Positions 6,001 through 30,077 are shown, counted from the stretch's first letter. The stretch is 64,000 bases of DNA from an uncultured Gammaproteobacteria bacterium (GCA_964409875.1 CAYPEN010000001.1:1313-65312); one strand, 5' to 3'. Notes: generated by a model from the letters alone, not told the origin. A program made the numbers and translations.

Positions 6001-8606
6001 GGACTGGTGCTAATTCATTCCAGAGACCCGATGGGTACTTCGTCATTCTCAATGGAGGAGCCACTCCGGCCACTAATATTTTAGATCCGTTCACGATGAC
6101 TGTGACCCAGGGGCCATTTACGGCTGGTGCAACCCCAAATGTAGGCGCAGGCGCCTTGAATATAAAGCGGTCTGATGGAAGAGTTACGATAATTTTAGGA
6201 AATGGTAATGCTATAGCTACAGGAACGAACGTGTACGATCCGGCTTCAAATTCGTTTGCAGCGGGACCGGCGCTTGTTGGAGGGACGGTTAATACCGGAG
6301 GCAGTGCAATACAAATTAATACGGGAAGAATTCTTCTCTTTAAGTCCACAGCTACCTCAAACTGGTATGATCCCGTCCTAAATACATTCGCCGCAGGTCC
6401 GACACCGACTGCTAATGGCGCCGGCGCATTTGTGATTCCTCGTTCTGACGGAAAGATATTCAAGGCGAACGGAGGAAACGCGGCTACAACAAATATTATC
6501 GACCCTCAGTCAGGCGTCGCAGTAACGGCCACCAGTGCTCCAACGCTTCCATGCAACATCAATACGGGTGCCCATACATTCCAGCGTCCAACGGGGGAGT
6601 ACGTTGTCATCTGTGGAGGCAGTACTGCAAATACTCTTGTTATCGATGCGGGTTGGAATTTGGGCGGAACTTATACTACGGAGCAAATCCAGGTCCCCAA
6701 CCTCAGCAGTACGAGCTCATTATTCTGGAAGAATGTAGGACAAGGGTCAATTACTGTAAAGTACAGAACTGCCGCTTCACAGCAGGCATTAGGAGTATCT
6801 TCATGGAAGGATTTACCTAAAAGCGGGTCTTATATTTCGCCAGCTGCTGGGGATACATGGATTCAAGCGAGGTTTGATTTGCAGGGAGTATTGCAGGATT
6901 TGCCGGGTGCAAAAACAAGAGTATGGAACGGGTCTGATGCGGGTGGTGGAATGGTCTATTACCGCTCAGTTCAGGCGCCAATACTTGAGTATTGGAAACT
7001 CATCAATATACAAGACCCGACGCTTTTGACTCTTTCAAGCGGTGGAGATAATGTGTTCCGTTTCTCCTCGGACGGTCAAGCATATACCTCTGACAATGGA
7101 GCATGGAATTCAGGAGGCGCCGACCTTGCAGAGCGCTATCAATCCCAAGATAGCCTTGTTGCAGGTGAAGTTGTATCTCTTGACAGGTTCCATCCGCAGA
7201 ACACCCGTCGCGCAACTACAGCTTATGACCAGAATGCCATGGGGGTTGTTTCGACTCAGCCCGGATTTGTTGCAGGTGCTTACACCGAGAATTCGTACCC
7301 AATTGCGCTTGTCGGACGTGTGCCTGTCAAGGTAAGCAATGAAAATGGAGAAATTCACGCGGGTGACTACCTCACTTCAGCCTCAATTCCAGGATATGCG
7401 ATGAAAGCAACCGTTGCAGGTCGGGTCATAGGTCAGGCGATGGAATCCTTCGACTCCGCTCAGGACCATGGGACTTCCAACCTGCAGGATTGTCCTAAAT
7501 TCGGTGCCGGAAATCTGACGGCAACACGATGCGGAACCATAACAGTATTTGTGAACCTGACCTCCTACAATGGCGAATCCGTAGACGTTGCCATGAAAGA
7601 GAATGGGTACGCCCTCAAAGAGGAGGAGTTACCCGCAATTTCCGGGATGGACTTTTCTGAAGGAACGGATGCAAGGCGCCAACAAGAAGTGCTCGGGTTC
7701 CTAAAGACCCAAAAAGATAACGGGCAAAGTATCTATACGGATAGAATTGCTGCAACGCAGGAGGTTATAAGTCCGCAGATTGTGACCGACCTTTTGGTCG
7801 CAAAGAAGATAAAGGCCGAGTCTATCGAAGGGCTTGAAATCATCACTAACTCAATTGAGAGGCTAACAGACCAGGTTGGAACAGGTAGTGCTATCCAGAA
7901 TTTCTCAGATAGGCTTACGATGTTAAGCCTTACTCAGAAAGACTTTGAAACTCAGGTTTCATCATTATCTGCAAAACTTGACAAGATAAGCTCACTTAAC
8001 CTCCTAAGCTTTATTGCCCAGGGCTCGACAAGCGGAGAGCTAACCATGGTCAACAATTTTGCTTCCTACGGCACGACAACGCTCTCAGAGGCCTCTGTAA
8101 TGAACACAATAACAATTGGTACGGGTTCTACCCTCAACCTTTCAAATAACTCACTGTACACGCTTGGAGACGACCTTTCTATACAGCCATTCAGACAGGG
8201 CGGCGTCAACTTCCTCGGTGGACTCATCAGCTTCGACACAGATGGGAAAGCGGTATTTAAAGAGGACGTTACCTTTGAAAAGAATGTGGGCGTTGCTGGT
8301 GTTCTTTCGGCCAAAACCGTTGCCTCAACTGAGCTTCAACTCGGCCAGGGAACAACGACCGTTATCTCAGATACGGAAGTAACGGCTACCGCCGCTGCAG
8401 GCCTTGTTACTTTGAAGAAGAACACAGACCACGTCAAGGTCAACAATCCGCTCGTACGTGACAATTCGTTCATATTCATAACTCCAAAGACCAAGACTGT
8501 CCTGCAACTGTTCTTGCTCGACCAAGCTGAGGGTACATCATTCACCGTCGGAGTAGACGGCAAATCCACAGAAGACATCAAGTTCAATTACCTCATCGTC
8601 AACTGA
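1..8606 (+). CDS. giant secreted/cell-surface repeat protein, 5' end outside window (>2860 aa): right-handed parallel beta-helix repeats, ~130-aa tandem modules, ~20 Kelch-like propeller blades, tail-fibre-like C-terminal region with coiled coil
   Basis: Frame 3 is open from nt 3 to the stop at 8604-8606. The ORF track starts at 351 only because it needs a start codon. Residues encoded at 3-350 (LRNNTLTLGGNTTGNITISPQNGAG) repeat the internal module seen later (VRNNFLTLGGNTTGDIYLKPLNGAG), so the gene starts upstream. N-terminal part: NosD/pectate-lyase-like repeats (GNNLQSNTTYGIWL, GNNVQSNTGTGIEM, GNTLQSNTQIGISI). nt about 4040-6540: about 20 tandem ~48-aa units with FQRPDGK...GG...YDP, a Kelch-type blade signature. 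C-terminal part: SGGADLAERY block, then heptad-like coiled coil and a final beta-rich domain. Confidence 0.8.
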   Translation, partial: AAGTNPTASVSATSGSNNGNGIVIAGDGSIQSLRNNTLTLGGNTTGNITISPQNGAGTVTVNGTLAAKTSGGATIVVAASNSSAKGKAQADYVATGTNDDVTIESAIAALPATGGSVVLLDGTYNIGNAAGDGIDITKSNVSIIGSGKATILKRQGDTATNDGVIAATSVSRIAIADLAIDGTKATYTGTQNRGIYFSSAVTNSQIRNTYIHDNDGTGIYVDSSSNNNTFKDNDLQSNGEYGGIVIVSSNSNIISGNNLQSNTTYGIWLVASTNNTVTGNNVQSNTGTGIEMFNGANNNIVTGNTLQSNTQIGISIDTANNNSITGNKLYDNTGSGSNSSIVLATADANTIANNDITDTAGTGYAINISNSASDNNYVTGNRYSGTGAANISDSGTGTMLASQLANSGNDLILNAARYLGIGTATPTSVLSVVGGTMGGNAAVILNQTGSSTNDIFAASSSGTTKFVIKNDGTASTSGNLVINSTGSLQTTNNQTLTLGGSSTGDIVLKPRNGSGFVGIGNASPAYPLDLLSTTNPQVRFGYDTSNYMTLQIGSSGVTTFDAVGSGAAFNFKDTVSLGVSGASNGILQFNNSAGGTAASITTNASGDLILQSSGGIVNLGVGSGDITIDPGTNNIVANLTSGNFYGQKNGTSLISLSTSGTLPVASFSGTTSFAGLLVDNSGVGNLFTASTSGLTRFTITNNGTASSSAGFTIDGNGGNIQSTRNQSLTIGGGSTGELTIGRTSQRVFLPGFDCSGSGNGGKLTTTAGGVLTCAADGGSSGAAGTWTLDGTNGIHTPINNTADLLVGGTSTQSAMFSVLGIAAGTNPSASVSAINGANANKGIYMAGDGSLQSVRNNFLTLGGNTTGDIYLKPLNGAGMVRIIHGTTGTGGLMLGDSETDATQKAARLKSIPYNSASSLPISMLIAINSSTNNVLNIGGGSSSEYAVTDVYIKTATTQTTTVGTTRFYVGGASGFVGIGDTNTSPVARLDILDNATDINGEKLVLRRTGAGDVGLSFQQNGISAFGIVNRSGSGNGLAFVDNYYEGSNGTEIARFYASSGVGIGTLGNTPVATLDVRGVFANSGTQPVASFSGTTSFAGLIVDNSGVGDLFTASTSGLTRFVLQSNGVASASGGFTINNAGSLQTTKGQTLTIGGNSTGDISFKPGNSSTSLYLASTGAIGVNGSFGALGQCLLSNGAGAAASWGGCAAGAAGGWFNLISSQGTIVPVNQTLDLLWGGNSTASAGFRISGATKNYGTVAAASVSANTSFAGMVIDNRGTGELLTASSSGQTRFTIYNSGNVVIGNGGDSGFRLDVKGSVRIGNNTTTDDIVKDSSVDFTQSGYAITTNDSVNTVSTSENQIKLVTDLIGAGASLTAPAADQTTGTNVTTGSVAFQRPDKKFVVFVGGAATSKMYDPTTGTWIAGPSTAGAVSMGAGARAFQRQNGSFLVIHGGAATSTTVYSSGGSANLGTAIAGPATTAAVGAGSQIIRRPDGKILVIHGNTSTTSSVHDPVTATGTTSLIGTFITGPATTGNVVAGSFVFQRPDGKWILGLGGSTTTNLYDPSSSGVGGGGAFSAGPSLSAGAPAAGTHVIQLPDGRFMVLVGGSTATQIYDWKSNSFSAGSTMTVTIGAGAHSFQRSDGKWVVVAGGNSTSLMLYDPTSGADGTFSNLASGLSAAAGAGALTFQRPDGKYIVVHGNTVQTTTLYDAGWNTTGTWTSEDILNTKISTYSAMIWSANPQSANNNARLDSETINIAVKTGDTLTSLGNNPYRTLQDSGDLIKAYGNSQYAKIQVTFTVPIRSYPGGATAYLAQSNIWDGEGGTFLRRSFIQPTVFSMRIQNPLVSYGDPSGQGDPAFGRNFATASAQLEGVGTDNSNRLTLLTLRNQPTSTASAGIIIASASANLGGNAGAGAHTIERNNGQFLTILGGGTTTTRTYDSDTNTWSAGPDLPNAAGAGAHSFLLPDGRFFVVLGNTTNKTAIFDPQTSLFLAGPNLFGNVGTGANSFQRPDGYFVILNGGATPATNILDPFTMTVTQGPFTAGATPNVGAGALNIKRSDGRVTIILGNGNAIATGTNVYDPASNSFAAGPALVGGTVNTGGSAIQINTGRILLFKSTATSNWYDPVLNTFAAGPTPTANGAGAFVIPRSDGKIFKANGGNAATTNIIDPQSGVAVTATSAPTLPCNINTGAHTFQRPTGEYVVICGGSTANTLVIDAGWNLGGTYTTEQIQVPNLSSTSSLFWKNVGQGSITVKYRTAASQQALGVSSWKDLPKSGSYISPAAGDTWIQARFDLQGVLQDLPGAKTRVWNGSDAGGGMVYYRSVQAPILEYWKLINIQDPTLLTLSSGGDNVFRFSSDGQAYTSDNGAWNSGGADLAERYQSQDSLVAGEVVSLDRFHPQNTRRATTAYDQNAMGVVSTQPGFVAGAYTENSYPIALVGRVPVKVSNENGEIHAGDYLTSASIPGYAMKATVAGRVIGQAMESFDSAQDHGTSNLQDCPKFGAGNLTATRCGTITVFVNLTSYNGESVDVAMKENGYALKEEELPAISGMDFSEGTDARRQQEVLGFLKTQKDNGQSIYTDRIAATQEVISPQIVTDLLVAKKIKAESIEGLEIITNSIERLTDQVGTGSAIQNFSDRLTMLSLTQKDFETQVSSLSAKLDKISSLNLLSFIAQGSTSGELTMVNNFASYGTTTLSEASVMNTITIGTGSTLNLSNNSLYTLGDDLSIQPFRQGGVNFLGGLISFDTDGKAVFKEDVTFEKNVGVAGVLSAKTVASTELQLGQGTTTVISDTEVTATAAAGLVTLKKNTDHVKVNNPLVRDNSFIFITPKTKTVLQLFLLDQAEGTSFTVGVDGKSTEDIKFNYLIVN

Positions 8607-14061: not shown

Positions 14062-15876
14062 ATGGGAGGATTGAGACTTTTAACAATAGTGTCTTTTGTC
14101 TTCTGTCTATTGTTTTTTTTCCCTTCAAAAGCTCATGCTGCTGTCAAGACATGGAATCCAACAGGCTGTGCTAGTTCGAGTTGGAATGTGGCAGGTAACT
14201 GGTCGGGAGGATTACCGGGGACTGCAGATGTTGCGACATTTGACGGGGCGACAAGTAACTGTCCTGTAACCGTTAATGCTTCTATTGATGTTGGCGGAAT
14301 TAATATTACCGGCGGGTATACAGGCACAATTACTCAAGGAAATGGAAACAGTATCAATATCAGAGCATCAGGATTTACTCAGAATGCATCGTCAAGCACA
14401 TTTATTGGTGGTGATGCGACGAGCAATATAACTCTTGACAGTAATGGTGGAGATTTTACGCTCACAGCGGGCACTTTTACAGCCAGCGGCGGAACTTTTC
14501 TATTTCATGATAACTTTACAATCAATGGGGGTACTTTTAACAGTAATTCAGGGAAGGTAGAGGAGCTGGCAAGTGCGGACAGTACGGCAACAATTACAGG
14601 TTCTGCTTCATTTTACGATTTTCAATTGGATAATGACGGAGGAAATGAAACAGTAACTTTTGCAGCCGGAACAACTATAACTGTTACCCATACCCTTTAT
14701 TTGAATGATACAACAGGAGGGTTTGGAGGGACTTATATTACCGGAAGCGGAGGAATAACAGCTCTTGGGGATATTTCAACGACAGATGGTTCTTCCTCTG
14801 CCGATGCCGGGGGAATCGGAGGGGATGCGACTGTAACTATAAGAGGAACGGGCAATCAAAATTTAATTGGAATGAATACCGGAAGAGGAAGGTTTCCTTC
14901 TCTTGTGATCAACAAACCATCAGGAACACTCAATATAACAGGAAATTTTTATGGTGGAAATTTTACCTATACAGCTGGGTCGTACAATATAAATACAAGC
15001 TCTTTTAATCTCCAAGGAAGCGTTGGTATCACTGGTTCTTTTACTTTTTACGACTTGGATATCGATAACGGTCAATGTACGAATGATACTATGACTGTCG
15101 CAAGCGGAACGACAATAACAGTCACCCACAAACTGTATCTTGATGATGATAGTACGGGTTGTGGAGGATTGTCGCTTAATGGGCCTGGCGTTTTTGTTGT
15201 TACGGGAGATATAGACACAAATACGACTGATGGGATAGGCGGGGATATTGCCATTACACTAAGTGGTGGAGCTGACCAAACGATAAAACAAGGATCATCA
15301 GGTAGTTTTCCTTCCGGAACTTTTACCATAAATAAATCAGCAGGAACTGTGACGCTTGTTTCTCCACTTGTCCTTAATTCTTCCGGTCAGGATATGGTTA
15401 TTTCTGCAGGTATTTTCAATGTCTCAAGTTACAATCTCACAATAAACGATATCTTGACTATTTCCGGGCAGCTGATTCAAACGACGGGGAATTTGACTAC
15501 CGGGAGTGTCTCTGTCGGTTCAAAAGGGGTATGGCAGAATAATTCTTCAGGCAGTATCACCTTAGGAGGAAATGTCTCAAATTCCGGATACATTCATCTT
15601 GATGGAGGAGGGTCTGCATGTGGTGACAGCGACCCGCTTCAAATCCTTTCAAGCTCAAATGGGGTACAAAGGACTTGGTCAGGAGCCGGGACATTTGTTT
15701 TGGACGATTTGAATGTGAAGGATCAGGGAGGAACAATAACTGCATACAGCAGCACATCTGTGAGCGGGAATGGGTGGACTTTTAATTCAGGCTGTCCGGC
15801 GTATTCCAATAGGACTGATGTAAAGGTAAGTGGTGGGACAAAGATAACGGGCGGTACAAAATTGAAAAGTCTTTAG
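14062..15876 (+). CDS. secreted beta-strand-repeat surface protein (PATR-like motif)
   Basis: Start at MGGLRLL (14062) preferred over 14014, which overlaps the upstream gene. Signal peptide ending SKAHA-AV. Then WNPTGCASSSWNVAGNWSGGLPGTADVATFDG, the WxxGG...NWS...P...D.A.F signature of passenger-associated transport repeats. Rest is G/T/N-rich beta-helix-like sequence. Confidence 0.65.
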   Translation: MGGLRLLTIVSFVFCLLFFFPSKAHAAVKTWNPTGCASSSWNVAGNWSGGLPGTADVATFDGATSNCPVTVNASIDVGGINITGGYTGTITQGNGNSINIRASGFTQNASSSTFIGGDATSNITLDSNGGDFTLTAGTFTASGGTFLFHDNFTINGGTFNSNSGKVEELASADSTATITGSASFYDFQLDNDGGNETVTFAAGTTITVTHTLYLNDTTGGFGGTYITGSGGITALGDISTTDGSSSADAGGIGGDATVTIRGTGNQNLIGMNTGRGRFPSLVINKPSGTLNITGNFYGGNFTYTAGSYNINTSSFNLQGSVGITGSFTFYDLDIDNGQCTNDTMTVASGTTITVTHKLYLDDDSTGCGGLSLNGPGVFVVTGDIDTNTTDGIGGDIAITLSGGADQTIKQGSSGSFPSGTFTINKSAGTVTLVSPLVLNSSGQDMVISAGIFNVSSYNLTINDILTISGQLIQTTGNLTTGSVSVGSKGVWQNNSSGSITLGGNVSNSGYIHLDGGGSACGDSDPLQILSSSNGVQRTWSGAGTFVLDDLNVKDQGGTITAYSSTSVSGNGWTFNSGCPAYSNRTDVKVSGGTKITGGTKLKSL

Positions 15877-18635
15877 CTTCTTGTTGCCCGGGCATTTGCC
15901 GCCCAGAGGAAGATATTGATAAGTGAAATTACAATAAAGGGGAGTACTTTTAACCACCCAAATTCAAGGACAAAAAGGAATTCAACGGCCATTGTCAAAA
16001 AGAGAAATGTTTCAAAGAGGGTGCCTGAAATGTAACTTATGTACCAATAAAGCACTTCAAACCCGAATCCTTTTGGCTTATTCAGTTGAGAAAGTTGTAC
16101 CTCAATTTTGTTATCCAACTTTTCCTTACCGATACTAAGCACGGTATTGCGGAAGCCTTTTTTAGAAACAGTTACCTTTACTGTCGTTGCATCTTGTATG
16201 TTGGTGAAAAACTCACCGTCCGAATTGGTTGTTGTGTGTGTTATTACTTTTCCGTTAGGGTGCGAAATGTAAAGTAGTGCTCCGGGTATCACTTCCCCTC
16301 CCGGTGTGAGGACTGTCCCATGAAGCGGATACGTATGGGTGGATTTTCCGATAATTCGTCCTACAAAATATAGGCAAAAATATGGCAATTTAGTTAAGGG
16401 AACGCTCAATTTCCGGGCAGTGGAAATGGTGAGGAGTCCAACTAAAAGGAGTGCAGTGGAGAAAGCTAGAAAATCAAAAAAACGGATAGATTTTCTGAGG
16501 GTGTGAATGTACTCTTTAATAAGCGTTGCCACATCAACGACCGTTGCGGTCGTGTATTTGGCATACGCTAACACACTGAAAGGGAGAGGTTTTAGCTCAA
16601 CTGTCGGATAATTTGAAGATGTTGCATTTATCTCAAAATCAACCGTTTTATCCTCAAACCCTATGGCTGTTACCTCCGCTCTGTATTTGCCCGTTGGCAA
16701 AACGCTTGCAACAGTTCCATCAACGTCAGAATAATTTGGATTCTTCACAGGAGTAATATCTGAAGTGAGCTTGTCATATATTTTGAGGCGAGTGTTATAG
16801 AAAGAGAATGTTACTTTTGCACGTTCAATTGGGTCTTTAGAAGCAGCGTTGATAACACGGAAAGAGGGGACTGTTTGAATTGTGGAGAGGGTTTCCTCCG
16901 TTATATTCCCGTTGAAGTCCTGAATTTGTATGACGAGGTGGTACGTCCCCGGTTCAACATTGGATTGCAGTTTGCCGATATATTCACCCGGAGCAATTTC
17001 CGTAATTTCGACAAAATCGTTGCTGGCATATGCTTGAAAAGAGGCAAGCCCCAACACTTTATCGTTTCTGATAATTGCTTTTATCGACTTTATTTTCTCA
17101 TATGATGCGACCGAGAATTTGAATGAATATGTAGTGTTGCGGGGAATTATAACAATAGGTCTTGTGGTTACTGCTCTTAATGGGTCTGTTAATACTACGT
17201 CATTGCTGGTCAAAATAAGTGAATTGGCCAAAATTTGAGGTGGCGTAGACGGGAGGGCAGTATCAATCACGTAAAAATCGGACACTGTATTTTTGCCGTC
17301 TTTATCTACGACCGTTACTTTATAGTAGTAACGTGTTGCAGGGGAAAGAGCAGAGAGGTGAATAATGTGCTCGGTAGAGAGAGTGTTTGAAGCGGCAGTT
17401 TTTGAAAGCGATTTTAGTGATGTCCCGTATTGAATTTTTGCAGTCGTGTTTTTATCTGTCACGACTAAGATTGCCGCCTCAGATGAGCTTACCGTCCGAA
17501 GCTGAATGTCATTGATAACAGGAGCTTTTGTGGGTGATGACGCTTGAGTTGGAGTGGGAGTGGGCGTTGAAGTTGCAGATGTTGCAGTCGAAGAGCTTGA
17601 ACTTGAGGAAGATGTAGACCCCGGAGTGGGGGTTGGTGTTACGGGCGTACTATATTGAAAGGTGGAAGTTACCGTCGAATCGGCTGTAACTGTGCCGGGT
17701 CCGTAGGTCCGGCCATTAACGGTAAAAGTGACGGGTAAGGCTCCAGTATAGGAGGCGTTGGTTTTTAGCTTAAAACTTACCGTTTGATCCGTTGTTAAAC
17801 CCGGAATAGCCGAAATTGTCCAATCTATTTTACGGTTAACGCTATCAACAACGGGAGGAGAACTGTTGTAGCCATTTGTTGCGCTCCCAACTACATAATC
17901 GAGAAGGTCAACGGTTGGCGTTGCTCCTCCCTGTACCGTGCCCAAATCCCAACTGGCCTCAACCGTAATGTCGGCCGGATAGGTAAGAAGATTTCCGTAT
18001 GTTAACGAGTAGGTAAGTGTGGTGTTTTGAGCGAAGGTGGCATTCGTCGGGTCTGAAAGCGCGAGGTCTGCGGAAAAGTCAGTAGGATTAGCGGCTACTG
18101 TTGCCGTAACACTTATGGAGTCATTGGTAACAATAGGAATACCATATGCATGGTAGTCGACCACCTGGTTTGACACATTCATAGTGCGTAGAATTCCTAC
18201 GTACGTGCCTGTTGAGGAGGGTGTGGTCAACGTGTTATTTGAGGCAAAATTGAAGCAGTATTCAGTCCCAGTAGACAAGTCATTTATGGGAAATGTGACA
18301 ATCTGACCAGAAACAGTCGTGGCAGTTGTGATGCCGGGCATGGCAACTGCGCCTGATGGGAGATTTGAGGTAGTGACAGTCCAATTTGAAGCAGTTTGGT
18401 TAACCGTAAAGCCGGTTGGAAAAACAACCTGTATCTGTGTTTCGGCTCCTGCAGTTTCAGGAGTGGCGCAAACCAACCCACCTGTTGAGCGTGAAATAGC
18501 AGTTCTATCAAGCCTCACAAGCGTACCTAAATCGCCAGCATACACCTCCCCCGTGAGTAGAGGAATAATAAATGAAACCAGGGTAAGTCCCAGAAAAAAA
18601 AGGGCAGACTTTTTCACCTTCCTTAATAATAGCAT
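15873..18635 (-). CDS. secreted multidomain cell-surface protein with C-terminal membrane anchor (FN3-like and carboxypeptidase-regulatory-like domains)
   Basis: 920 aa. N-terminal signal/anchor (LFFLGLTLVSFIIPLLTGEVYA). S/T/P-rich linker (TPVTPTPTPGSTSSSSSSSSTATSATSTPTPTPT). FN3-like block (IQLRTVSSSEAAILVVTDKNTTAKIQYGTS...TRYYYKVTVVDKDGKN). CarboxypepD_reg-like block (GTVLTPGGEVIPGALLYISHPNGKVITHTTTNSDGEFF). Two C-terminal hydrophobic helices. Confidence 0.7.
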   Translation of the reverse strand: MLLLRKVKKSALFFLGLTLVSFIIPLLTGEVYAGDLGTLVRLDRTAISRSTGGLVCATPETAGAETQIQVVFPTGFTVNQTASNWTVTTSNLPSGAVAMPGITTATTVSGQIVTFPINDLSTGTEYCFNFASNNTLTTPSSTGTYVGILRTMNVSNQVVDYHAYGIPIVTNDSISVTATVAANPTDFSADLALSDPTNATFAQNTTLTYSLTYGNLLTYPADITVEASWDLGTVQGGATPTVDLLDYVVGSATNGYNSSPPVVDSVNRKIDWTISAIPGLTTDQTVSFKLKTNASYTGALPVTFTVNGRTYGPGTVTADSTVTSTFQYSTPVTPTPTPGSTSSSSSSSSTATSATSTPTPTPTQASSPTKAPVINDIQLRTVSSSEAAILVVTDKNTTAKIQYGTSLKSLSKTAASNTLSTEHIIHLSALSPATRYYYKVTVVDKDGKNTVSDFYVIDTALPSTPPQILANSLILTSNDVVLTDPLRAVTTRPIVIIPRNTTYSFKFSVASYEKIKSIKAIIRNDKVLGLASFQAYASNDFVEITEIAPGEYIGKLQSNVEPGTYHLVIQIQDFNGNITEETLSTIQTVPSFRVINAASKDPIERAKVTFSFYNTRLKIYDKLTSDITPVKNPNYSDVDGTVASVLPTGKYRAEVTAIGFEDKTVDFEINATSSNYPTVELKPLPFSVLAYAKYTTATVVDVATLIKEYIHTLRKSIRFFDFLAFSTALLLVGLLTISTARKLSVPLTKLPYFCLYFVGRIIGKSTHTYPLHGTVLTPGGEVIPGALLYISHPNGKVITHTTTNSDGEFFTNIQDATTVKVTVSKKGFRNTVLSIGKEKLDNKIEVQLSQLNKPKGFGFEVLYWYISYISGTLFETFLFLTMAVEFLFVLEFGWLKVLPFIVISLINIFLWAANARATRS

Positions 18636-23587: not shown

Positions 23588-24268
23588 TTACAAAACCAAA
23601 AGAGAGAAGAGGGCAAACGAGGCTCCCAGTAGCATTCCTCCGATAACATCGGTTGTCCAGTGTTCTCCAAGACTAATTCTTGAAACGAGCATAAGAAACA
23701 TATATATAAGTACAACTCCTATTAAACCATATCGCAAATATGCGGGTAGTCTTTTAGTTTTATATAAAAGAGATATGATTATAATGCTCAAAAAAATTAC
23801 ACGTAACGAATGTCCCGATGGATAGCTATCATTGGCATCAATATAAAAGCCAGGGAACTCTTTTGAGAGAGTTGTAGTACGCAGGAACATGTGTGGCGGT
23901 GGTGGTTGGTTGAGATAATTCTTGCCGATTATCTCAATGATATGTCCCAGACCGAAAAGGCCAACGGATAAAAGGCCCAAGAGTTTTCTATGCAGCAAAA
24001 GCGCTACAAGAAGGATAACAATTGAGGTTTCAAATCTACCTGAAACCGATAGAAACGAGAAAAGATCATCAAACCTGACCGGAATATGCGCCTGAAGTCT
24101 GACTGTTGTGTCAAAGTCGAAATGCCGCAACACATCCTTTTTTACGACAATTGTGAATATTGCAAAGAGAAGCGAAAAGAACGCTCCTGCACAAAAGAAG
24201 AATATAAGGTGATGATTTTGGAATGATGGTTTAAGATTGCGTTTCAAATGATGGGCAGCTTTTTCCAT
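23588..24268 (-). CDS. PAP2-family membrane phosphatase
   Basis: Multiple TM helices. PAP2 motifs SYPSGHS and SRISLGEHWTTDVIGG. Confidence 0.7.
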   Translation of the reverse strand: MEKAAHHLKRNLKPSFQNHHLIFFFCAGAFFSLLFAIFTIVVKKDVLRHFDFDTTVRLQAHIPVRFDDLFSFLSVSGRFETSIVILLVALLLHRKLLGLLSVGLFGLGHIIEIIGKNYLNQPPPPHMFLRTTTLSKEFPGFYIDANDSYPSGHSLRVIFLSIIIISLLYKTKRLPAYLRYGLIGVVLIYMFLMLVSRISLGEHWTTDVIGGMLLGASFALFSLLVL

Positions 24269-24330
24269 GGTAGTGACTATGATAACAGAATTTACGCTCG
24301 AAAAGAAATAAGTTCCGGCAATTCTTGGCG

Positions 24331-24900
24331 CTATTGTTTGGCTTGCTGCAAAACTAACGGGAACGCTTGATTCAATTCTTTTGAAATGAGAGATACCTTG
24401 ATTGTATTATTGGTATTGGTGATGAGTGCATTTTGTGATGAAAACTGACTCTCAACTAACGTTATATTCATAAGTTCTTTGACATCTCCTTGCATGAGTA
24501 GTGAACCTAAGTTAACCGAATTGTTGATGGCTTTATTTTTAGTGTCAATTCCTATTATTTGAACCAGATTTGGAAATTTTATATTGTAATTGAAAAAAGT
24601 TGAGTCAAGCGCATTGGAAGGTTTAAAGTCTACGAAATGAAGCTTTGCTGGATTGTAGTTAAAGGTTAGTTTTACGCCCGTGAGACTTCGCCCGCTTGTA
24701 CTGATTTGTAAGTTCAAAATATGTAAGTCCCCTTGATTTTTTGTAGCTTTGCGGGAATTTGTATACTGAGGAGTGGCTTGATCAGGCACATTTAGTGACT
24801 TTTTCCCGGTATCCAACAAAAGGGATGCAAAAGTTATAGCAACGGTTAAAAGTATTACAAAAGCAATTAACAGTAATGTTTTTTTATCGGATAGATTCAT
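24331..24900 (-). CDS. hypothetical secreted/membrane-anchored protein
   Basis: 189 aa with an N-terminal signal anchor (LLLIAFVILLTVAITFASLLL). A 3-nt gap to the upstream gene suggests an operon. Confidence 0.5.
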   Translation of the reverse strand: MNLSDKKTLLLIAFVILLTVAITFASLLLDTGKKSLNVPDQATPQYTNSRKATKNQGDLHILNLQISTSGRSLTGVKLTFNYNPAKLHFVDFKPSNALDSTFFNYNIKFPNLVQIIGIDTKNKAINNSVNLGSLLMQGDVKELMNITLVESQFSSQNALITNTNNTIKVSLISKELNQAFPLVLQQAKQ

Positions 24901-24903
24901 ATT

Positions 24904-25947
24904 TTATAATGCGTTTTTTCTCCAAATCAGGTAATCCGACAAGTCAGCTTTGCCATCCGAATTGAAATCAGCATTTTGTGGTCTTTGACTTGCCGTTTCT
25001 GTTTTCCAAACATTAAGGTCTGAAATATTTGTCTTACCGTCACAATTGGCATCACCTTGTGCTTTTGTTGTGCAACTGACAACGCTTGTTGGAGCCTGTT
25101 GAGTTGGCTGCGTTTGCTTCGTTTGTGGTGATTGTGGCGCAGTCGTAGGGTTTGGTGTCGTTTGTTGGGTATGGGTGGGGTTACTTGTGGGTGTAGGTGA
25201 TTTTTTAAAGAAATTCCAAAATGATGAATTTCCCGAAGAGTTATTTTGCTGGTTACTTGAGGAAGAATCTGGTTTATTTTGTGTGGTACCAGATGATGTA
25301 GTCGTAGGTTCTACTTTTGTTGCAGGTTGAGAGGTAACTACAGGTATAGAAGTTGGTGATGCAGGATTTTGAACGATAATGTTGGTAGATGAAGAAGTGA
25401 TGGAGCCTTGTGTTGGGTCGATAATTTCTACCGTATTTCTTGTCTCATGAGATAAAGGGTACATGGTTGTATCAGAACCGAAGGATGCATCAGATATTGT
25501 TATGTCTGCAATTCCAGGTTGGACTCCGCGAAAGTAAAGCGTTCCGATTGTTCTTTTGCCACTTATGGATTCTCCTAATGTATCAAGTGCTAAAAACCTA
25601 AATGTACCGTGTGACTCCGTATCTTGTGTCGGCTCGTTGGGAGTAAGTTCGTTGTCAAATATGCTTTGAGGGATAAATGACACAAGCTTGAGGCTTTTGG
25701 GATTATAAGAGACAGTAAAGTCTAATAATGCAGCATTTACGCTTTTGCTATCAAGAATTACGGTTACAGGAAATAGCAATCCTATGCCTGCTTTTGTTAA
25801 ATTATTTTGAAGCGAAAGTGAAGCGGATTCTATGTCTGCTCGTGAACGCGTGTCCTGAATACTTTTCAATGCAAAAATAACAAGAGGAAGTGCTAAAAGC
25901 ATGAAGAAAAATAGAAATAATGTTTTTTTTGAATTCAATTTTTTCAT
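24904..25947 (-). CDS. secreted protein with T/P/Q-rich linker and C-terminal dockerin-like double repeat
   Basis: Signal anchor. Linker PTSNPTHTQQTTPNPTTAPQSPQTKQTQPTQQAPTS. C-terminus KAQGDANCDGKTNISDLNVWKTE...ADFNSDGKADLSDYLIW has two D-x-N/D-x-DGK-x-x-x-x-DL calcium-loop-like repeats. Confidence 0.55.
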   Translation of the reverse strand: MKKLNSKKTLFLFFFMLLALPLVIFALKSIQDTRSRADIESASLSLQNNLTKAGIGLLFPVTVILDSKSVNAALLDFTVSYNPKSLKLVSFIPQSIFDNELTPNEPTQDTESHGTFRFLALDTLGESISGKRTIGTLYFRGVQPGIADITISDASFGSDTTMYPLSHETRNTVEIIDPTQGSITSSSTNIIVQNPASPTSIPVVTSQPATKVEPTTTSSGTTQNKPDSSSSNQQNNSSGNSSFWNFFKKSPTPTSNPTHTQQTTPNPTTAPQSPQTKQTQPTQQAPTSVVSCTTKAQGDANCDGKTNISDLNVWKTETASQRPQNADFNSDGKADLSDYLIWRKNAL

Positions 25948-25948
25948 A

Positions 25949-28900
25949 TCAATTTATCGGAATATAATTGTCCAAATCCTCTAAAGATACTTTCCCATCG
26001 TTATTAAAGTCAGCAGTCTTACCATTCCCGCTCAACTTTTCAGAACGCCATATCAAAAGGTCTGAATTGTTGACCTTATTATCACAGTTAGCATCTCCTT
26101 GAGCTTTCAGTGGGCACGATTGGGCGGTTTGAGCACCCTGTACACTGCTATATGCCGTGTTTTGTTTTTTCGCACAAACAACGCATCTGTCATCAAATAT
26201 CTTACATGCGGTACCTTTGTCCGGACAACTTCTGAATTCAGAAGAAGCTACACCTGATTCTACATCTATTCTTCTTTTCTCCATTTTGTCTCCGTTGCAT
26301 GTCCAGTAGTCATATTTCACGCCTGCAAAAGCTGCCGATACAAAAGTTTTTGTGGCATCATACACAAGTGCTACATCAGCAGGACTTATGATATATGTAG
26401 CAGTTCCAAAAATATGTTCAGAAACTTGTTGAGCAATTATTTTGTTAACTCCTTTTGATGCTAAACGTTCTTCTAGCTCATAACCCACCAACTGGGTATA
26501 CTGACCGTGGGAATAGCTAATTATGTCTTGTCTTGATGCTTCTTCAAAATCCCTATTAACAATTAGTTCGGCATAGCTTACACCAGTTTTATCTTTGATA
26601 TATTGGTATGCCGTATCAATGATTAAGTTTTTCAAACTGAATGGCATAGGGATATTCGTTCCATCACCGCAATAGAGATGTTCAATGGTCGTGTTATCAA
26701 CTACAATAGGATCTGCACATTTAACCTTTTGATCTATCTCAGTACACACTTTGTTTTCTTTCCCGCAGTCTTCTTCTTTTATGAATGGACCGGACAATAT
26801 ATTGTTTCTGCATGCGGCTGAACCCTTAGGATACCATCCGTCCTTATCGGCTATCATATTAACATAGTTCTTTCCATTTTCGCCCTGATTAATTCCGCTT
26901 GATGGGTCATCTGCGCGATTCGTTGGGGGATGGACAGTAACGTTTTCAAGAGGCCGGTCATTACATATTGCGACAAGACCCACTTGGGTACATACCTTGC
27001 CTTCTGCAGCACAATCTTTTAAAAATTTATTAAAGGTCCATTCTGTTTTTGGATTACCCGACGAATCTTTTTCACCTGTTTCAATAATTCCAAGGTTATA
27101 TATTTTGTTGCTATCATTTCCTGTCCCGCAATGATTTGTAGCATTTTCCCTTTCATCAATGTTTTTCTTATCATTCGTACTATTGTCAAGGCAAGTATAT
27201 GATTCGAAATTTCCTGCGCCGACCACCTTACACTCTTGCCCTTTTGCTTTACAGTCAATGGCATTAGGATCCAGTCTTGGTGGGTTGAGGAAATTAAATT
27301 TTTGGGTTGGGTCGTATTTAGCATTCCCAGAAGAGAGATTAAAAATAACATTATCAACGCAGGTCCAACCTTCGGATTTGAAGTAAATATATTGTTTTTC
27401 CGAGGGACCTGAAGCACCGGGAATTATGGGTTTTGGAACACAACACAACTGTGACGTTGTTGCGCAGCTAGTGGTTCCGGTGGTATAGACTTCCTCCGTA
27501 TCACTGCAACTTTGACTCAAGCCGTTAATACATCTTCCACCTTTTGACGAGCAGTCGATAGGAGCAGCTGCCTTGCAACATGCCACATCAAATCCTGAAG
27601 AATCAGAGCAATTTGTCCCTACCGTATTTTGCTGTGTTCCGGTGGTGCATGCATTAGCTAAGGTAGTAAGGCATTCATATCCGGTCCCGTATTTTTGGGC
27701 GCAAGTCGTCGAAGGGTTGGTTTGTGAAGTGGTAGATGCATTTGTCGCAGTAACTTGAGTATTACCTGCTTTACAGCACATCATTTGAAAACCTCCTGAA
27801 TTATCACAGTCGGTTCCGGTCGGGTCCTTTTGAATCCCTGCCTTGCATTCATCGGTTGATGCTATCACACATTGGTATCCACTACCGTATTTTTGAGCGC
27901 AGGTTGATGTTGGACTAGATTGGGAGGTCGTTGAAGTGTTCGAAGAAGAATTTGAAGGAGCTACTGTTGGTGCGGCTGCTTTACAGCATGCCATATCAAA
28001 TCCAGCTGTATCCGAGCAATCTGTTCCCACAGTATTTTGTTGTATACCAGATTGGCATTCAGTTGATGAAGTCGTAAGACATTGGTATCCAGCACCGTAT
28101 TTTTGGTCACAAGAGAGTAATGAGGTTGTCGGTGTTGGGGTTGGTTGGGAATAGGGTGTTGGTGTGGGTGCGGCAGCTTTGCAGCATGCTACATCAAATC
28201 CTGCTGTATCCGAGCAATTTGTCCCTACTGTGTTTTGTCGTGTGCCGGACTGGCATTCGGTAGCGGAAGTTGTCAGACATTGATATCCATATCCATATTT
28301 CTGGTCACAGGAGAGTAATGTATTTGCCGGAGTTGGAGTGGATTGATAATAAGGGGTTGGTGTCGGGGTCGCAGCCTTGCAACACGCGACCTGAAACCCT
28401 GAAGAATCAGAGCAATCTGTACCTACCGTGCTTTGTTTTATTCCCGACTGGCATTCGGTAGCGGAAGTTGTAAGACATTGGTATCCTGCACCGTATTTTT
28501 GGTCACAGGATGAAGTGACAGGCGGCGCACAGGATTCACCGGTACTGATAGGTCCAAAATATCCGTTGGGGTCAAGCGTACACCCCTGTGCATTACAGGC
28601 TTCTACATCATAGAAAATACTTAAATTAGGTGCAAAACCTGAAATCGAGAAATTGGGTTGTGAGGAGGAAATCTGTTGCTGCCCGTTGGTATAACTTCCC
28701 CAGCCGTAAATTAAATGATAAGAGGTAGCATTTGGAACGGGAGCTGCAGAGAAGGAAATTGAAATTTGATTATTAGAACAAGTTCTGTTGGCACCCATAA
28801 CTCTTGGTCCTTGTGGAGGTCCTGCAACAACTTTGCAGCACGCATATGCACCTCCTGTATTGCATGTTGTTCCTATGGCAGACTGTTGTAGGTTGGGTGG

Positions 28901-29362
28901 TGCGCAGGTAGATGAGAAAGCGTCAACACATTGGTACCCTGCACCGTATTTTTGGTCACACGTTTGAGAGGACATTTGGGGAGTTGGGGTGGGTGCATCA
29001 GGAGCAAAACAACACATTGATTCTTGTCCAATCCATTGAGTGCATGCTGCATCCCCGTCCGGAGATGAGTAATGGGTTGAACCTGCAGGACATTGCGAAA
29101 AGTAGGAGAGAGGAACACAACTATTTGTGCCTCCCGTCGGATAATTGGGACAGCCGCTTTCTGCCGCATGCTGGCGGATATCAACCTGTTGCTTGAGTAC
29201 AAAAACCGTAACCGGAATAGAAAGCGCTGCTATAGCCACCAGAACCAATATGGGGATGAAGCCTTTTGAATTAAAATTAAATAATTTCGCTTGTGATATA
29301 TTTCTCACAAAAAATGATAGCCCGGTTATCAATATAGTAGCAGTGTTTAGTGTGCTTGACAA
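25949..29362 (-). CDS. large secreted protein with seven or more tandem 6-Cys ~40-aa repeats and a C-terminal dockerin-like module
   Basis: 1137 aa. Signal anchor. Repeats CDQKYGAGYQCLTTSATECQSG(I/T)(K/Q)QNTVGT(D/N)CSD(S/T)(S/A)GF(Q/D)VACCKAA, separated by AAPTPTPY linkers. C-terminus KAQGDANCDNKVNNSDLLIWRSEK...ADFNNDGKVSLEDLDNY, the same module as the neighbouring gene. A 2-nt gap to that gene. Confidence 0.65.
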   Translation of the reverse strand: MSSTLNTATILITGLSFFVRNISQAKLFNFNSKGFIPILVLVAIAALSIPVTVFVLKQQVDIRQHAAESGCPNYPTGGTNSCVPLSYFSQCPAGSTHYSSPDGDAACTQWIGQESMCCFAPDAPTPTPQMSSQTCDQKYGAGYQCVDAFSSTCAPPNLQQSAIGTTCNTGGAYACCKVVAGPPQGPRVMGANRTCSNNQISISFSAAPVPNATSYHLIYGWGSYTNGQQQISSSQPNFSISGFAPNLSIFYDVEACNAQGCTLDPNGYFGPISTGESCAPPVTSSCDQKYGAGYQCLTTSATECQSGIKQSTVGTDCSDSSGFQVACCKAATPTPTPYYQSTPTPANTLLSCDQKYGYGYQCLTTSATECQSGTRQNTVGTNCSDTAGFDVACCKAAAPTPTPYSQPTPTPTTSLLSCDQKYGAGYQCLTTSSTECQSGIQQNTVGTDCSDTAGFDMACCKAAAPTVAPSNSSSNTSTTSQSSPTSTCAQKYGSGYQCVIASTDECKAGIQKDPTGTDCDNSGGFQMMCCKAGNTQVTATNASTTSQTNPSTTCAQKYGTGYECLTTLANACTTGTQQNTVGTNCSDSSGFDVACCKAAAPIDCSSKGGRCINGLSQSCSDTEEVYTTGTTSCATTSQLCCVPKPIIPGASGPSEKQYIYFKSEGWTCVDNVIFNLSSGNAKYDPTQKFNFLNPPRLDPNAIDCKAKGQECKVVGAGNFESYTCLDNSTNDKKNIDERENATNHCGTGNDSNKIYNLGIIETGEKDSSGNPKTEWTFNKFLKDCAAEGKVCTQVGLVAICNDRPLENVTVHPPTNRADDPSSGINQGENGKNYVNMIADKDGWYPKGSAACRNNILSGPFIKEEDCGKENKVCTEIDQKVKCADPIVVDNTTIEHLYCGDGTNIPMPFSLKNLIIDTAYQYIKDKTGVSYAELIVNRDFEEASRQDIISYSHGQYTQLVGYELEERLASKGVNKIIAQQVSEHIFGTATYIISPADVALVYDATKTFVSAAFAGVKYDYWTCNGDKMEKRRIDVESGVASSEFRSCPDKGTACKIFDDRCVVCAKKQNTAYSSVQGAQTAQSCPLKAQGDANCDNKVNNSDLLIWRSEKLSGNGKTADFNNDGKVSLEDLDNYIPIN

Positions 29363-29390: not shown

Positions 29391-30077
29391 ATGGAAATTC
29401 AAAATGAGAATAGTAAAGTGAATGCAGGAAACGAAAAAAAAGGATATGTACCTGAAACAACGGATGAGATTTTAGAGGATCTTACACCCACGCCTGAGAA
29501 AACTGATAGTTCTTTATTAAATTTTTTGAAATCCCGCACAATTAAATTGGCTCCATTAGCCTTGTTGGGAGCCGCAGTTTTTGGGGGTGCGAAAGTATAT
29601 GAGAATTCGCAGAATGGGAGTAGTGGGCAAGAAACTGCCGAAATTACTATGCAAGATCAAAAATTAATAGAAGGTTTTCAGCAGGGGGAGGGAATGATAC
29701 TTAAAGACTTGGCAAAAAGTCCGGAAGCATTTATGAATACTTACAAAAAAGGCGAAGTTATAGGGAGGGACGAGCATGGGAAGCCGGTTGAAACGGGGTA
29801 TGTTGATGTGAAAAATTATCCTGCAGATAAATTTCCGAATGGAGCTCCTGTGGAAGTAATTGCAAAACTGCCTGTTGGAACAAAAATCGAAAACCTAGCC
29901 ATAATTTCACCACAAGATAAGAAAGATGCTTCGGTGGGTGATAATTACATTTCATTTTCCTGCGAGTCAGTGAAAGGGGAATTTCATGATGCAAAAGAAG
30001 TTGAAAAGGTTATCGATCTTGGGAATGGAACTGTTTGTGTGGTCCCATGGGTAAATATTTACGGACAGGCTAGATAA
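29391..30077 (+). CDS. hypothetical membrane-anchored protein
   Basis: 228 aa with one predicted TM helix (LAPLALLGAAVFGGAKV). Confidence 0.45.
   Translation: MEIQNENSKVNAGNEKKGYVPETTDEILEDLTPTPEKTDSSLLNFLKSRTIKLAPLALLGAAVFGGAKVYENSQNGSSGQETAEITMQDQKLIEGFQQGEGMILKDLAKSPEAFMNTYKKGEVIGRDEHGKPVETGYVDVKNYPADKFPNGAPVEVIAKLPVGTKIENLAIISPQDKKDASVGDNYISFSCESVKGEFHDAKEVEKVIDLGNGTVCVVPWVNIYGQAR

Follow-up and report, generated by a model that had tools for sequence, protein, structure and literature searches.

Genomic organization of the locus

We analyzed a 64,000-nucleotide stretch of DNA assigned to an uncultured Gammaproteobacteria bacterium (GCA_964409875.1, CAYPEN010000001.1:1313-65312; the whole 64-kb stretch is hereafter called the window), focusing on a minus-strand operon that encodes a large cysteine-rich dockerin protein, two cohesin proteins and a PAP2-family phosphatase. 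All four open reading frames (ORFs) are present at the positions listed by a first-pass annotation made from the sequence alone (lengths in amino acids, aa):

25949..29362, minus strand: large secreted Cys-rich dockerin protein, 1137 aa counted from the listed TTG (ORF)
24904..25947, minus strand: adaptor, 347 aa, with a signal-like N-terminal segment, cohesin, long linker and dockerin (ORF and domain matches)
24331..24900, minus strand: anchor, 189 aa, with an N-terminal transmembrane helix, short linker and cohesin (ORF, Pfam, hhalign and model)
23588..24268, minus strand: PAP2-family membrane phosphatase, 226 aa, final gene of the cassette (ORF and Pfam PAP2)

The genes had been described as separated by 2-3 nucleotides (nt) or short gaps; spacing is indeed short, with measured values of 1, 3 and 62 nt in order from the large gene to PAP2, and a promoter/terminator scan found no terminator-like sites inside the four-gene cluster on the minus strand. 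A shared dockerin had also been attributed to the proteins of the operon, which applies to the 1137-aa and 347-aa proteins and not to the other two. The cohesin-like partner that such a dockerin implied lies in the operon itself, as the 347-aa and 189-aa proteins. Cohesins and dockerins number exactly two each in the window, and all four are encoded in this operon. The comparisons below also draw on loci fetched from other genomes, including 29 loci from metagenome-assembled genomes (MAGs; L004-L032) collected with short peptide patterns for dockerins or N-terminal signals.

Two type-I dockerins with a cysteine pair

The two largest genes end in near-identical C-terminal modules (...LKAQGDANCDNKVNNSDL...ADFNNDGKVSLED and ...TKAQGDANCDGKTNISDL...ADFNSDGKADLSD), and the motif quoted earlier for 25949..29362 and 24904..25947 reads as quoted in both. 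A six-frame scan of the 64 kb for paired D-x-[ND]-x-[DN]...[DE] loops recovered just these two dockerins:

25964..26116, minus strand: type-I dockerin of the large protein, aa 1083-1133, Cys pair C1083/C1093 (Pfam, profile and motif scan)
24907..25080, minus strand: type-I dockerin of the adaptor, aa 290-347, same Cys pair (Pfam and profile)

In both proteins and their orthologs, loop 1 follows D-A-N-C-D-x-K-x-N-x-x-D and loop 2 follows D-F-N-x-D-G-K-x-x-x-x-D. The Ca-ligand positions 1, 3, 5 and 12 are D/N/D/D in both 12-residue loops, each of which is followed by a helix. Against Pfam Dockerin_1 (PF00404), the full-length proteins score 21.2 and 22.2 bits, slightly under the 22.9 cutoff, and the module of the large protein scanned alone reaches 27.5 bits; Dockerin_1 also matches 25 of 28 related modules. 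A family profile further recovered solved type-I dockerins, including CelS (1daq/2mte) and 4fl4 (E = 1.5e-7 to 4e-7), CelD, Xyn10B and others. The dockerin call, which the first-pass annotation had tied to conservation of the Ca-binding residues, is thus borne out by conserved ligand positions, by Pfam and by the match to CelS 1daq (E = 1.5e-7). As judged from these sequence matches, both modules are true type-I dockerins, with Ca-dependent cohesin binding as a prediction.

The Cys at loop position 4 (GDANCD) pairs with another nine residues upstream (C-x9-C). The upstream Cys lay outside the dockerin search pattern and is nevertheless present in 34 of the 36 such dockerins from the fetched loci, and the pair suggests a disulfide staple. 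In related MAG loci, this Cys-pair subtype caps many unrelated proteins at either their N- or their C-terminal end; the titles of these MAGs name Patescibacteria, Microgenomates, Gottesmanbacteria, Levyibacteriota, Parcubacteria and Saccharibacteria.

The two dockerins of the operon are 48% identical and differ mainly in the second helix. In the adaptor dockerin the helices are near-symmetric (SDLNVWK / SDYLIWRK), whereas the second helix of the large protein's dockerin differs (EDLDNYIP). Each subtype is conserved across genomes, as ...LEDLDNYIPIN in the large protein and ...DYLIWRKNAL in the adaptor. This difference, maintained between orthologs, suggests that the two dockerins may carry distinct specificities. 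By analogy with known type-I dockerins, the contrast in helix symmetry is consistent with a dual versus a single binding mode.

Cohesins of the adaptor and the anchor

The adaptor joins a cohesin to its dockerin through a long linker:

25414..25830, minus strand: adaptor cohesin, aa ~40-178 (Pfam Cohesin and profile matches)
25081..25413, minus strand: adaptor Ser/Thr/Pro/Gln-rich low-complexity linker, aa ~179-289 (read from the translation)

The adaptor scores 28 bits against Pfam Cohesin (PF00963; cutoff 24.1) over aa 49-163, and its cohesin profile matches the R. flavefaciens cohesins 5m2o/5aoz (E = 0.0018). Its linker, of ~110 aa, differs in sequence between orthologs.

Against Pfam Cohesin alone, the 189-aa protein gives a weak match under the cutoff (E = 0.0024, 18.5 bits). 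When its homologue profile was aligned by hhalign with the adaptor cohesin family, the two matched at 97.4% (E = 1.3e-11), and reciprocal hidden Markov models (HMMs) built without the target matched each other with E = 2.4e-8 and 9.2e-14. The solved cohesin ScaB (3l8q) was also matched by sequence profile (E = 0.028). An AlphaFold model of the protein (predicted local distance difference test, pLDDT, 73) comprises a helix at aa 3-28, a disordered segment at aa 30-54 (pLDDT <50) and nine strands, with the cohesin spanning aa ~55-185. Foldseek searches of the PDB with this model returned cohesins almost exclusively among the top ~45 matches (prob 1.00, best E = 1.7e-5), with template modeling (TM) scores of up to 0.57 on the target. 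Profiles and predicted fold together identify the 189-aa protein as a membrane-anchored cohesin.

In an anchor ortholog of 245 aa (L033 2922-3659; P0015), an extra C-terminal tail combines a pair of Cys with one dockerin-like Ca loop, DINHDGVIDNDD. This loop implies that the anchor itself may be dockable in some genomes.

Architecture of the large protein

Upstream of its dockerin, the large protein is built from a hydrophobic N-terminal segment, a series of 6-Cys modules and a long conserved C-terminal region:

29195..29266, minus strand: hydrophobic segment near the N-terminus (KGFIPILVLVAIAALSIPVTVFVL, aa 33-56), presumably a signal peptide or anchor (homologue alignment)
29009..29152, minus strand: divergent 6-Cys module, aa 71-118, CPNYPTGGTNSC...MCC (alignment and Cys framework)
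28835..28960, minus strand: 6-Cys repeat copy 1, aa 135-176, with a variant second half (repeat alignment)
28514..28810, minus strand: ~100-aa insert between repeats 1 and 2, aa 185-283 (conserved in P0004 and P0006)
27575..28507, minus strand: 6-Cys repeat copies 2-6, at aa 286-328, 352-394, 418-460, 488-530 and 554-596
27440..27553, minus strand: divergent 6-Cys module, aa 604-641, CSSKGGRCINGLSQSC...LCC (kept in all homologs)
26123..27430, minus strand: conserved C-terminal region, aa 645-1080, ~440 aa (homologue alignment)

In the homologue alignment, the membrane segment at the N-terminus, the C-terminal half and the dockerin are conserved, whereas the Cys modules vary. The hydrophobic segment is followed by a conserved KQQ-x-D-x-RQHA motif, and the residues G34, F35, P37 ... 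Q58, D61, R63, Q64 and A66 are invariant across the four homologs. All 72 Cys of the protein are located downstream of this segment. The insert at aa 185-283 gives a weak Pfam Ig_7 match (E = 0.022) and is possibly Ig/Fn3-like.

The C-terminal region (aa 645-1080) has no Pfam family match. It contains four 4-Cys units of the pattern C...DC-x3-G-x2-C-x6-12-C, at Cys 668/704/711/724, 745/784/791/800, 851/866/873/882 and 1022/1046/1053/1060, which surround a Cys-free, probably helical stretch of ~120 aa (aa ~900-1020). Self-BLAST of the C-terminal half detected no significant internal repeats, and the 4-Cys units are accordingly a pattern-level observation only.

The true start of the large gene probably lies downstream of the listed TTG at 29362 yet upstream of 29266. 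The TTG overlaps the promoter-like -35 hexamer of a -35/-10 pair and lies 28 nt from the ATG of the divergent gene, which makes it doubtful as a start; the scan found 15 promoter-like sites against 15.2 expected by chance, so this overlap is a hint only. The NCBI version of the protein (1096 aa, GTG start at 29239) appears too short, as it cuts the conserved KGFIPI... membrane segment; in the homologue alignment, the invariant G-F-x-P-I has to lie within the protein, downstream of its start. A plausible candidate is the GTG at 29308, and we put the length of the protein at about 1120-1137 aa.

A common N-terminal motif was observed among secreted proteins of the window (29162-29266 and 25836-25920, both minus strand) and of L001, L011, L017, L020, L029 and L030. 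It consists of a hydrophobic segment, ~5 residues, and then Q/K-Q-x-D-x-R-[QS]-[HRQ]-A, with VLKQQVDIRQHA and LKSIQDTRSRA as examples, and may serve as a signal-peptide or sorting motif particular to the lineage. The Q-x-D-x-R-x-x-A motif is present in the adaptor and the large protein and absent from the membrane-anchored cohesin proteins. Within the large-protein family, the hydrophobic segment opens with an invariant [KR]-G-F-x-P, resembling a prepilin-type site.

An orphan six-cysteine repeat

The large protein contains six canonical QKYG-type copies of the repeat, with the first Cys at aa 135, 286, 352, 418, 488 and 554 and the framework C-x9-C-x7-C-x12/13-C-x7/9-CC. The canonical copies are 47-83% identical to copy 2, and copies 2-6 are joined by Pro/Thr/Ser linkers. 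The two divergent modules (aa 71-118 and 604-641) have the same C..C..C..C..CC framework; the count of "seven or more" copies given by the first-pass annotation holds if these are pooled with the canonical copies, which alone number six. For copies 2-4, Tandem Repeats Finder reported a period of 198 bp (2.7 copies, 78% matches, score 645), a divergence between copies that makes assembly collapse unlikely. Beyond the Cys, residues K6, Y7, G8, G10, Y11, G31 and T32 are invariant or nearly so, and the consensus is non-cationic (3 K against 3 D and 1 E, net charge about -1).

An HMM built from 11 copies matched only four proteins, all of one family, among 1.84 billion representative proteins. Neither the whole protein nor a two-repeat fragment gave a family match in Pfam or NCBIfam (E up to 5), and a profile search of PDB sequences with the repeat found none. 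Two weak matches were dismissed as chance: a 26-residue, sub-threshold match to DUF7872 (E = 0.0014) and a match to PRMT6 (E = 1.2).

AlphaFold folded a single 47-aa unit (copy 2) with a pLDDT of 88.4, placing helices at residues 3-7 and 19-23 and strands at 12-15, 25-27 and 42-46. Foldseek searches of the PDB and BFVD with this model returned no significant match; the sole PDB match was crotamine (1h5o; TM about 0.5, E = 9, prob 0.08). CBM1, CBM10, CBM14, CBM18/hevein, pacifastin and similar families likewise gave no Pfam, NCBIfam, PDB-sequence or Foldseek match to the repeat. The earlier statement that the repeat is not recognized as a known family therefore holds in Pfam, NCBIfam, PDB sequences, and the PDB and BFVD by Foldseek. 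Pacifastin-like domains have been described in bacteria of the candidate phyla radiation (CPR) in a 2026 paper (PMC13388995); a pacifastin-like reading of the present repeat was ruled out by its different Cys spacing and the lack of a fold match.

The repeat resembles crotamine and trans-defensins in its six-Cys framework ending in CC and its small alpha/beta module of ~42 aa. It differs from crotamine and beta-defensins in its longer inter-Cys spacings, extra helix, non-cationic character and tandem occurrence in a large bacterial surface protein. We treat the beta-defensin-like framework as a lead, not a classification, and give little credence to the idea that the repeat is a true bacterial example of the beta-defensin-like (trans-defensin) fold, which has so far been reported from animals alone. 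In that reading, the repeat would not be a free peptide; tandem, non-cationic copies would act in binding at the end of a cohesin-dockerin-assembled tether by which an episymbiotic CPR bacterium attaches to its host. In its abstract, a 2024 survey of bacterial defensins reports only cis-defensins in bacteria (PMC11561630).

The C..C..C..C..CC framework also occurs with other sequences in ORFs of the fetched loci (22 instances, many redundant, versus 0.9 in shuffles), and a module related to the divergent one at aa 71-118 is present in an unrelated Patescibacteria ORF (L020). Judged by these patterns, disulfide modules of CPR bacteria probably form a broader class that has been little described, with the QKYG repeat as one of its branches. 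Its conserved residues and Pro/Thr linkers would suit a putative displayed binding module.

Conservation of the operon and its probable host lineage

Full-length relatives of the large protein are rare, with only four detected among 5.8 billion clustered proteins. Gene order around them is as follows:

P0004 contig: genes for a 1235-aa protein, a 338-aa cohesin-dockerin protein, a 245-aa protein and a 226-aa PAP2 protein, in the same four-gene order
L033: same four-gene order as the window, PAP2 included
L001-L003: large gene followed directly by a gene for a 373-aa cohesin-dockerin protein; PAP2 absent

In L001, L033 and the P0004 contig, the gene that immediately follows the large one encodes an adaptor ortholog, and L001-L003 carry extra dockerin, cohesin and Cys-rich genes nearby, including one for a 204-aa protein with a membrane helix and a cohesin. 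Across the genomes with the conserved operon, identity of the large protein ranges from 29% to 66%. Between the window and L033, the large protein and PAP2 are 66% and 76% identical, whereas the adaptor (39%) and anchor (35%) are far less so, indicating that the assembly modules evolve much faster than their neighbors.

The 226-aa protein is a clear PAP2 family member (PF01569; 64.4 bits against a cutoff of 27.2, E = 1.2e-17) and matches undecaprenyl-diphosphatase equivalogs weakly, far under their cutoffs. PAP2 occupies the same position in L033 and on the P0004 contig, and this conserved neighbor may act in envelope lipid-carrier turnover.

Of the 29 other MAG loci, 12 have a cohesin-like ORF on the same strand as a Cys-pair dockerin ORF and no more than 10 kb away, and clustering of cohesin and dockerin genes seems common across this radiation. 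The host of the window is probably a member of the Patescibacteria (CPR), an ultra-small bacterium. Many third-party MAGs with this dockerin subtype (L004-L029) are titled "uncultured Gammaproteobacteria", with a G+C content mostly about 0.4 (0.33-0.52). Several MAGs titled "Gammaproteobacteria" carry the Patescibacteria-type N-terminal motif, and these labels may be wrong.

A proposed anchor-adaptor-cargo assembly

The locus is, in our assessment, probably a self-contained non-cellulosomal cohesin-dockerin assembly cassette of a probable Patescibacteria bacterium, a reading that leaves real room for doubt. It resembles a surface tether that assembles itself more than machinery for degrading cellulose. 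From the domain identities, the 2:2 count of cohesins to dockerins, and the structure and conservation of the operon, we infer the following mechanism. The anchor would be kept in the membrane with its cohesin outside, as it lacks the processing motif common to the adaptor and the large protein. After export, these two would probably undergo cleavage behind the conserved ...D-x-R-x-x-A motif. Through its C-terminal dockerin, the adaptor would bind the anchor cohesin in a Ca-dependent manner, the long adaptor linker would span the envelope, and the distal N-terminal cohesin of the adaptor would capture the C-terminal dockerin of the large protein. Held in this way by its C-terminal end, the large protein would present its Cys-repeat array facing outward, as a multivalent tip for binding or adhesion, with a host-cell surface or a glycan as the putative target. 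This topology is supported by the difference between the short anchor linker (aa 30-54) and the ~110-aa linker of the adaptor.

Several points weigh against this model. The lineage assignment rests on the titles of relatives' records, with no marker gene, and Pfam and PDB searches found no known adhesin or carbohydrate-binding module (CBM) signature in the Cys repeat. At 48% identity, the two dockerins might cross-react with either cohesin. If the N-terminal segments are uncleaved, all three proteins would be membrane-tethered and the geometry would differ. The 64 kb is the visible part of the genome, and further cohesin or dockerin genes may lie elsewhere. Furthermore, L001 lacks PAP2, which is possibly just a neighbor.

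Among the alternatives, the locus could encode the scaffold of a true cellulosome-like complex, in which the cohesins recruit dockerin-tagged carbohydrate-active enzymes (CAZymes) encoded elsewhere and the Cys repeats are small CBMs that target the substrate. Conserved Tyr, Lys and Gln residues combined with Pro/Thr linkers are an architecture typical of CBM arrays, and the repeat shows both. The Cys-pair dockerin is carried by many different proteins in other Patescibacteria MAGs, such as the SGNH/GDSL hydrolase P0012 (PF13472, PF00657), and cohesin and dockerin genes expressed by a Microgenomates population have been read as cellulosome components (PMC9123182). However, neither the operon nor the homologous loci encode a glycoside hydrolase, lyase or esterase domain, and no CAZyme or CBM domains were found in the operon or in the scanned proteins of the window. 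The only two dockerins in the 64 kb both belong to the cassette, each cohesin protein carries a single cohesin in place of a multi-cohesin scaffoldin, and no Pfam CBM family matches the repeat. We consider a cellulosome-like scaffold unlikely.

The modules could also be unpaired, with the dockerins acting as Ca-binding stabilizing or wall-binding elements, the cohesins having an unrelated role, and their clustering reflecting envelope co-expression. To our knowledge, many non-cellulosomal dockerin- and cohesin-like modules have no demonstrated partner, which counts for this possibility, as does the fact that 17 of the 29 fetched dockerin loci have no cohesin within 10 kb. Yet the 2:2 match is contained in one tight operon that is conserved across genomes even where the large proteins share as little as 29% identity (29-66%), cohesin ORFs are frequent beside these dockerins, and the fusion of cohesin and dockerin in one adaptor is a classical signature of hierarchical assembly. 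These features make unpaired modules quite improbable.

That the large protein is instead a secreted effector or toxin precursor, a polyprotein of defensin-like 6-Cys peptides that would be cut apart at the linkers and sent out from the cell surface, is very improbable: it would account for a C..C..C..C..CC framework shared with beta-defensins, crotamine and sea-anemone toxins and for crotamine 1h5o as the sole PDB match, but that match is insignificant, the repeat is non-cationic, the linkers contain no processing motifs, and the conserved 440-aa C-terminal region and dockerin favor a tethered structural protein.

Relation to known systems

Among the closest known counterparts of the proposed cassette are the cellulosome anchoring and adaptor systems of Clostridia, such as ScaA-ScaB-ScaC of Acetivibrio cellulolyticus and CipA-OlpB/SdbA of C. 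thermocellum. Common to both are type-I-like dockerins with two Ca loops, a cohesin beta-sandwich, an adaptor combining cohesin and dockerin, a cell-bound anchor cohesin, and genes clustered in one operon. Unlike these scaffoldins, the present proteins carry single cohesins rather than arrays, and the anchor is held by an N-terminal membrane helix rather than by S-layer homology (SLH) repeats or sortase. The cassette also differs in its C-x9-C dockerins, in its orphan Cys-repeat cargo with no enzymes or known CBM, and in its host, probably a small-genome CPR bacterium.

Non-cellulosomal modules, such as those of the Clostridium perfringens GH84/GH33 toxin complexes and Archaeoglobus fulgidus (2xdh), provide a second parallel, namely assembly outside cellulose degradation, and 2jh2, 2o4e, 2vo8 and 2xdh were among the Foldseek and profile matches. 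Those modules sit on enzymes, whereas the cargo here has no recognizable catalytic domain, and the present system arranges three tiers in one conserved cassette with PAP2. Bell et al. 2022 (PMC9123182) identified cohesin and dockerin genes, expressed in situ, in the Microgenomates Ca. Shapirobacterales BG1-G2, which shares its broad lineage and domain types with the cassette. Their report gives a one-sentence cellulosome annotation, without operon architecture, the Cys-pair dockerin subtype or the Cys-repeat cargo (PMC9123182).

Non-cellulosomal cohesin-dockerin pairs are thus already known. What is new is a compact, conserved anchor-adaptor-cargo cassette with PAP2, a Cys-pair dockerin subtype, and a cargo of orphan, confidently folding 6-Cys repeats. 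A lifestyle attached to other cells is generally ascribed to CPR/Patescibacteria, but the construction of their attachment surfaces is poorly understood. A three-tier cassette with non-enzymatic cargo would offer a concrete, testable model of attachment based on two cohesins and two dockerins. If correct, this model would carry the cohesin-dockerin principle into functions other than polysaccharide degradation, in a lineage for which this principle has had only passing mention. Meanwhile, the repeat, present in four proteins among 1.84 billion representatives, is a clean example of a lineage-restricted disulfide-rich domain, and the C-x9-C dockerin and the orphan 6-Cys module may serve as orthogonal assembly tags or scaffolds.

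Genomic context of the cassette

The gene divergent from the large gene (29391..30077, plus strand) encodes a 228-aa protein with one predicted membrane segment and no Pfam match, and is syntenic with a counterpart in L001 (41% identity, E = 4e-45). Two further probable surface proteins, both without a dockerin, are encoded in the window:

351-8606, plus strand: 2751-aa probable surface protein with NosD/right-handed beta-helix and Kelch matches
15873-18635, minus strand: 920-aa probable surface protein with CarboxypepD_reg and purple-acid-phosphatase-N matches

A 910-aa CarboxypepD_reg protein is encoded near the cassette on the P0004 contig.

An unusual strand disparity has reportedly been described in a paper on a complete Microgenomates genome (PMC7143001). 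In the window, almost all 2-kb bins show positive GC skew, and cumulative skew climbs steadily to 2.56 over the whole 64 kb, indicating strong compositional asymmetry between the strands.

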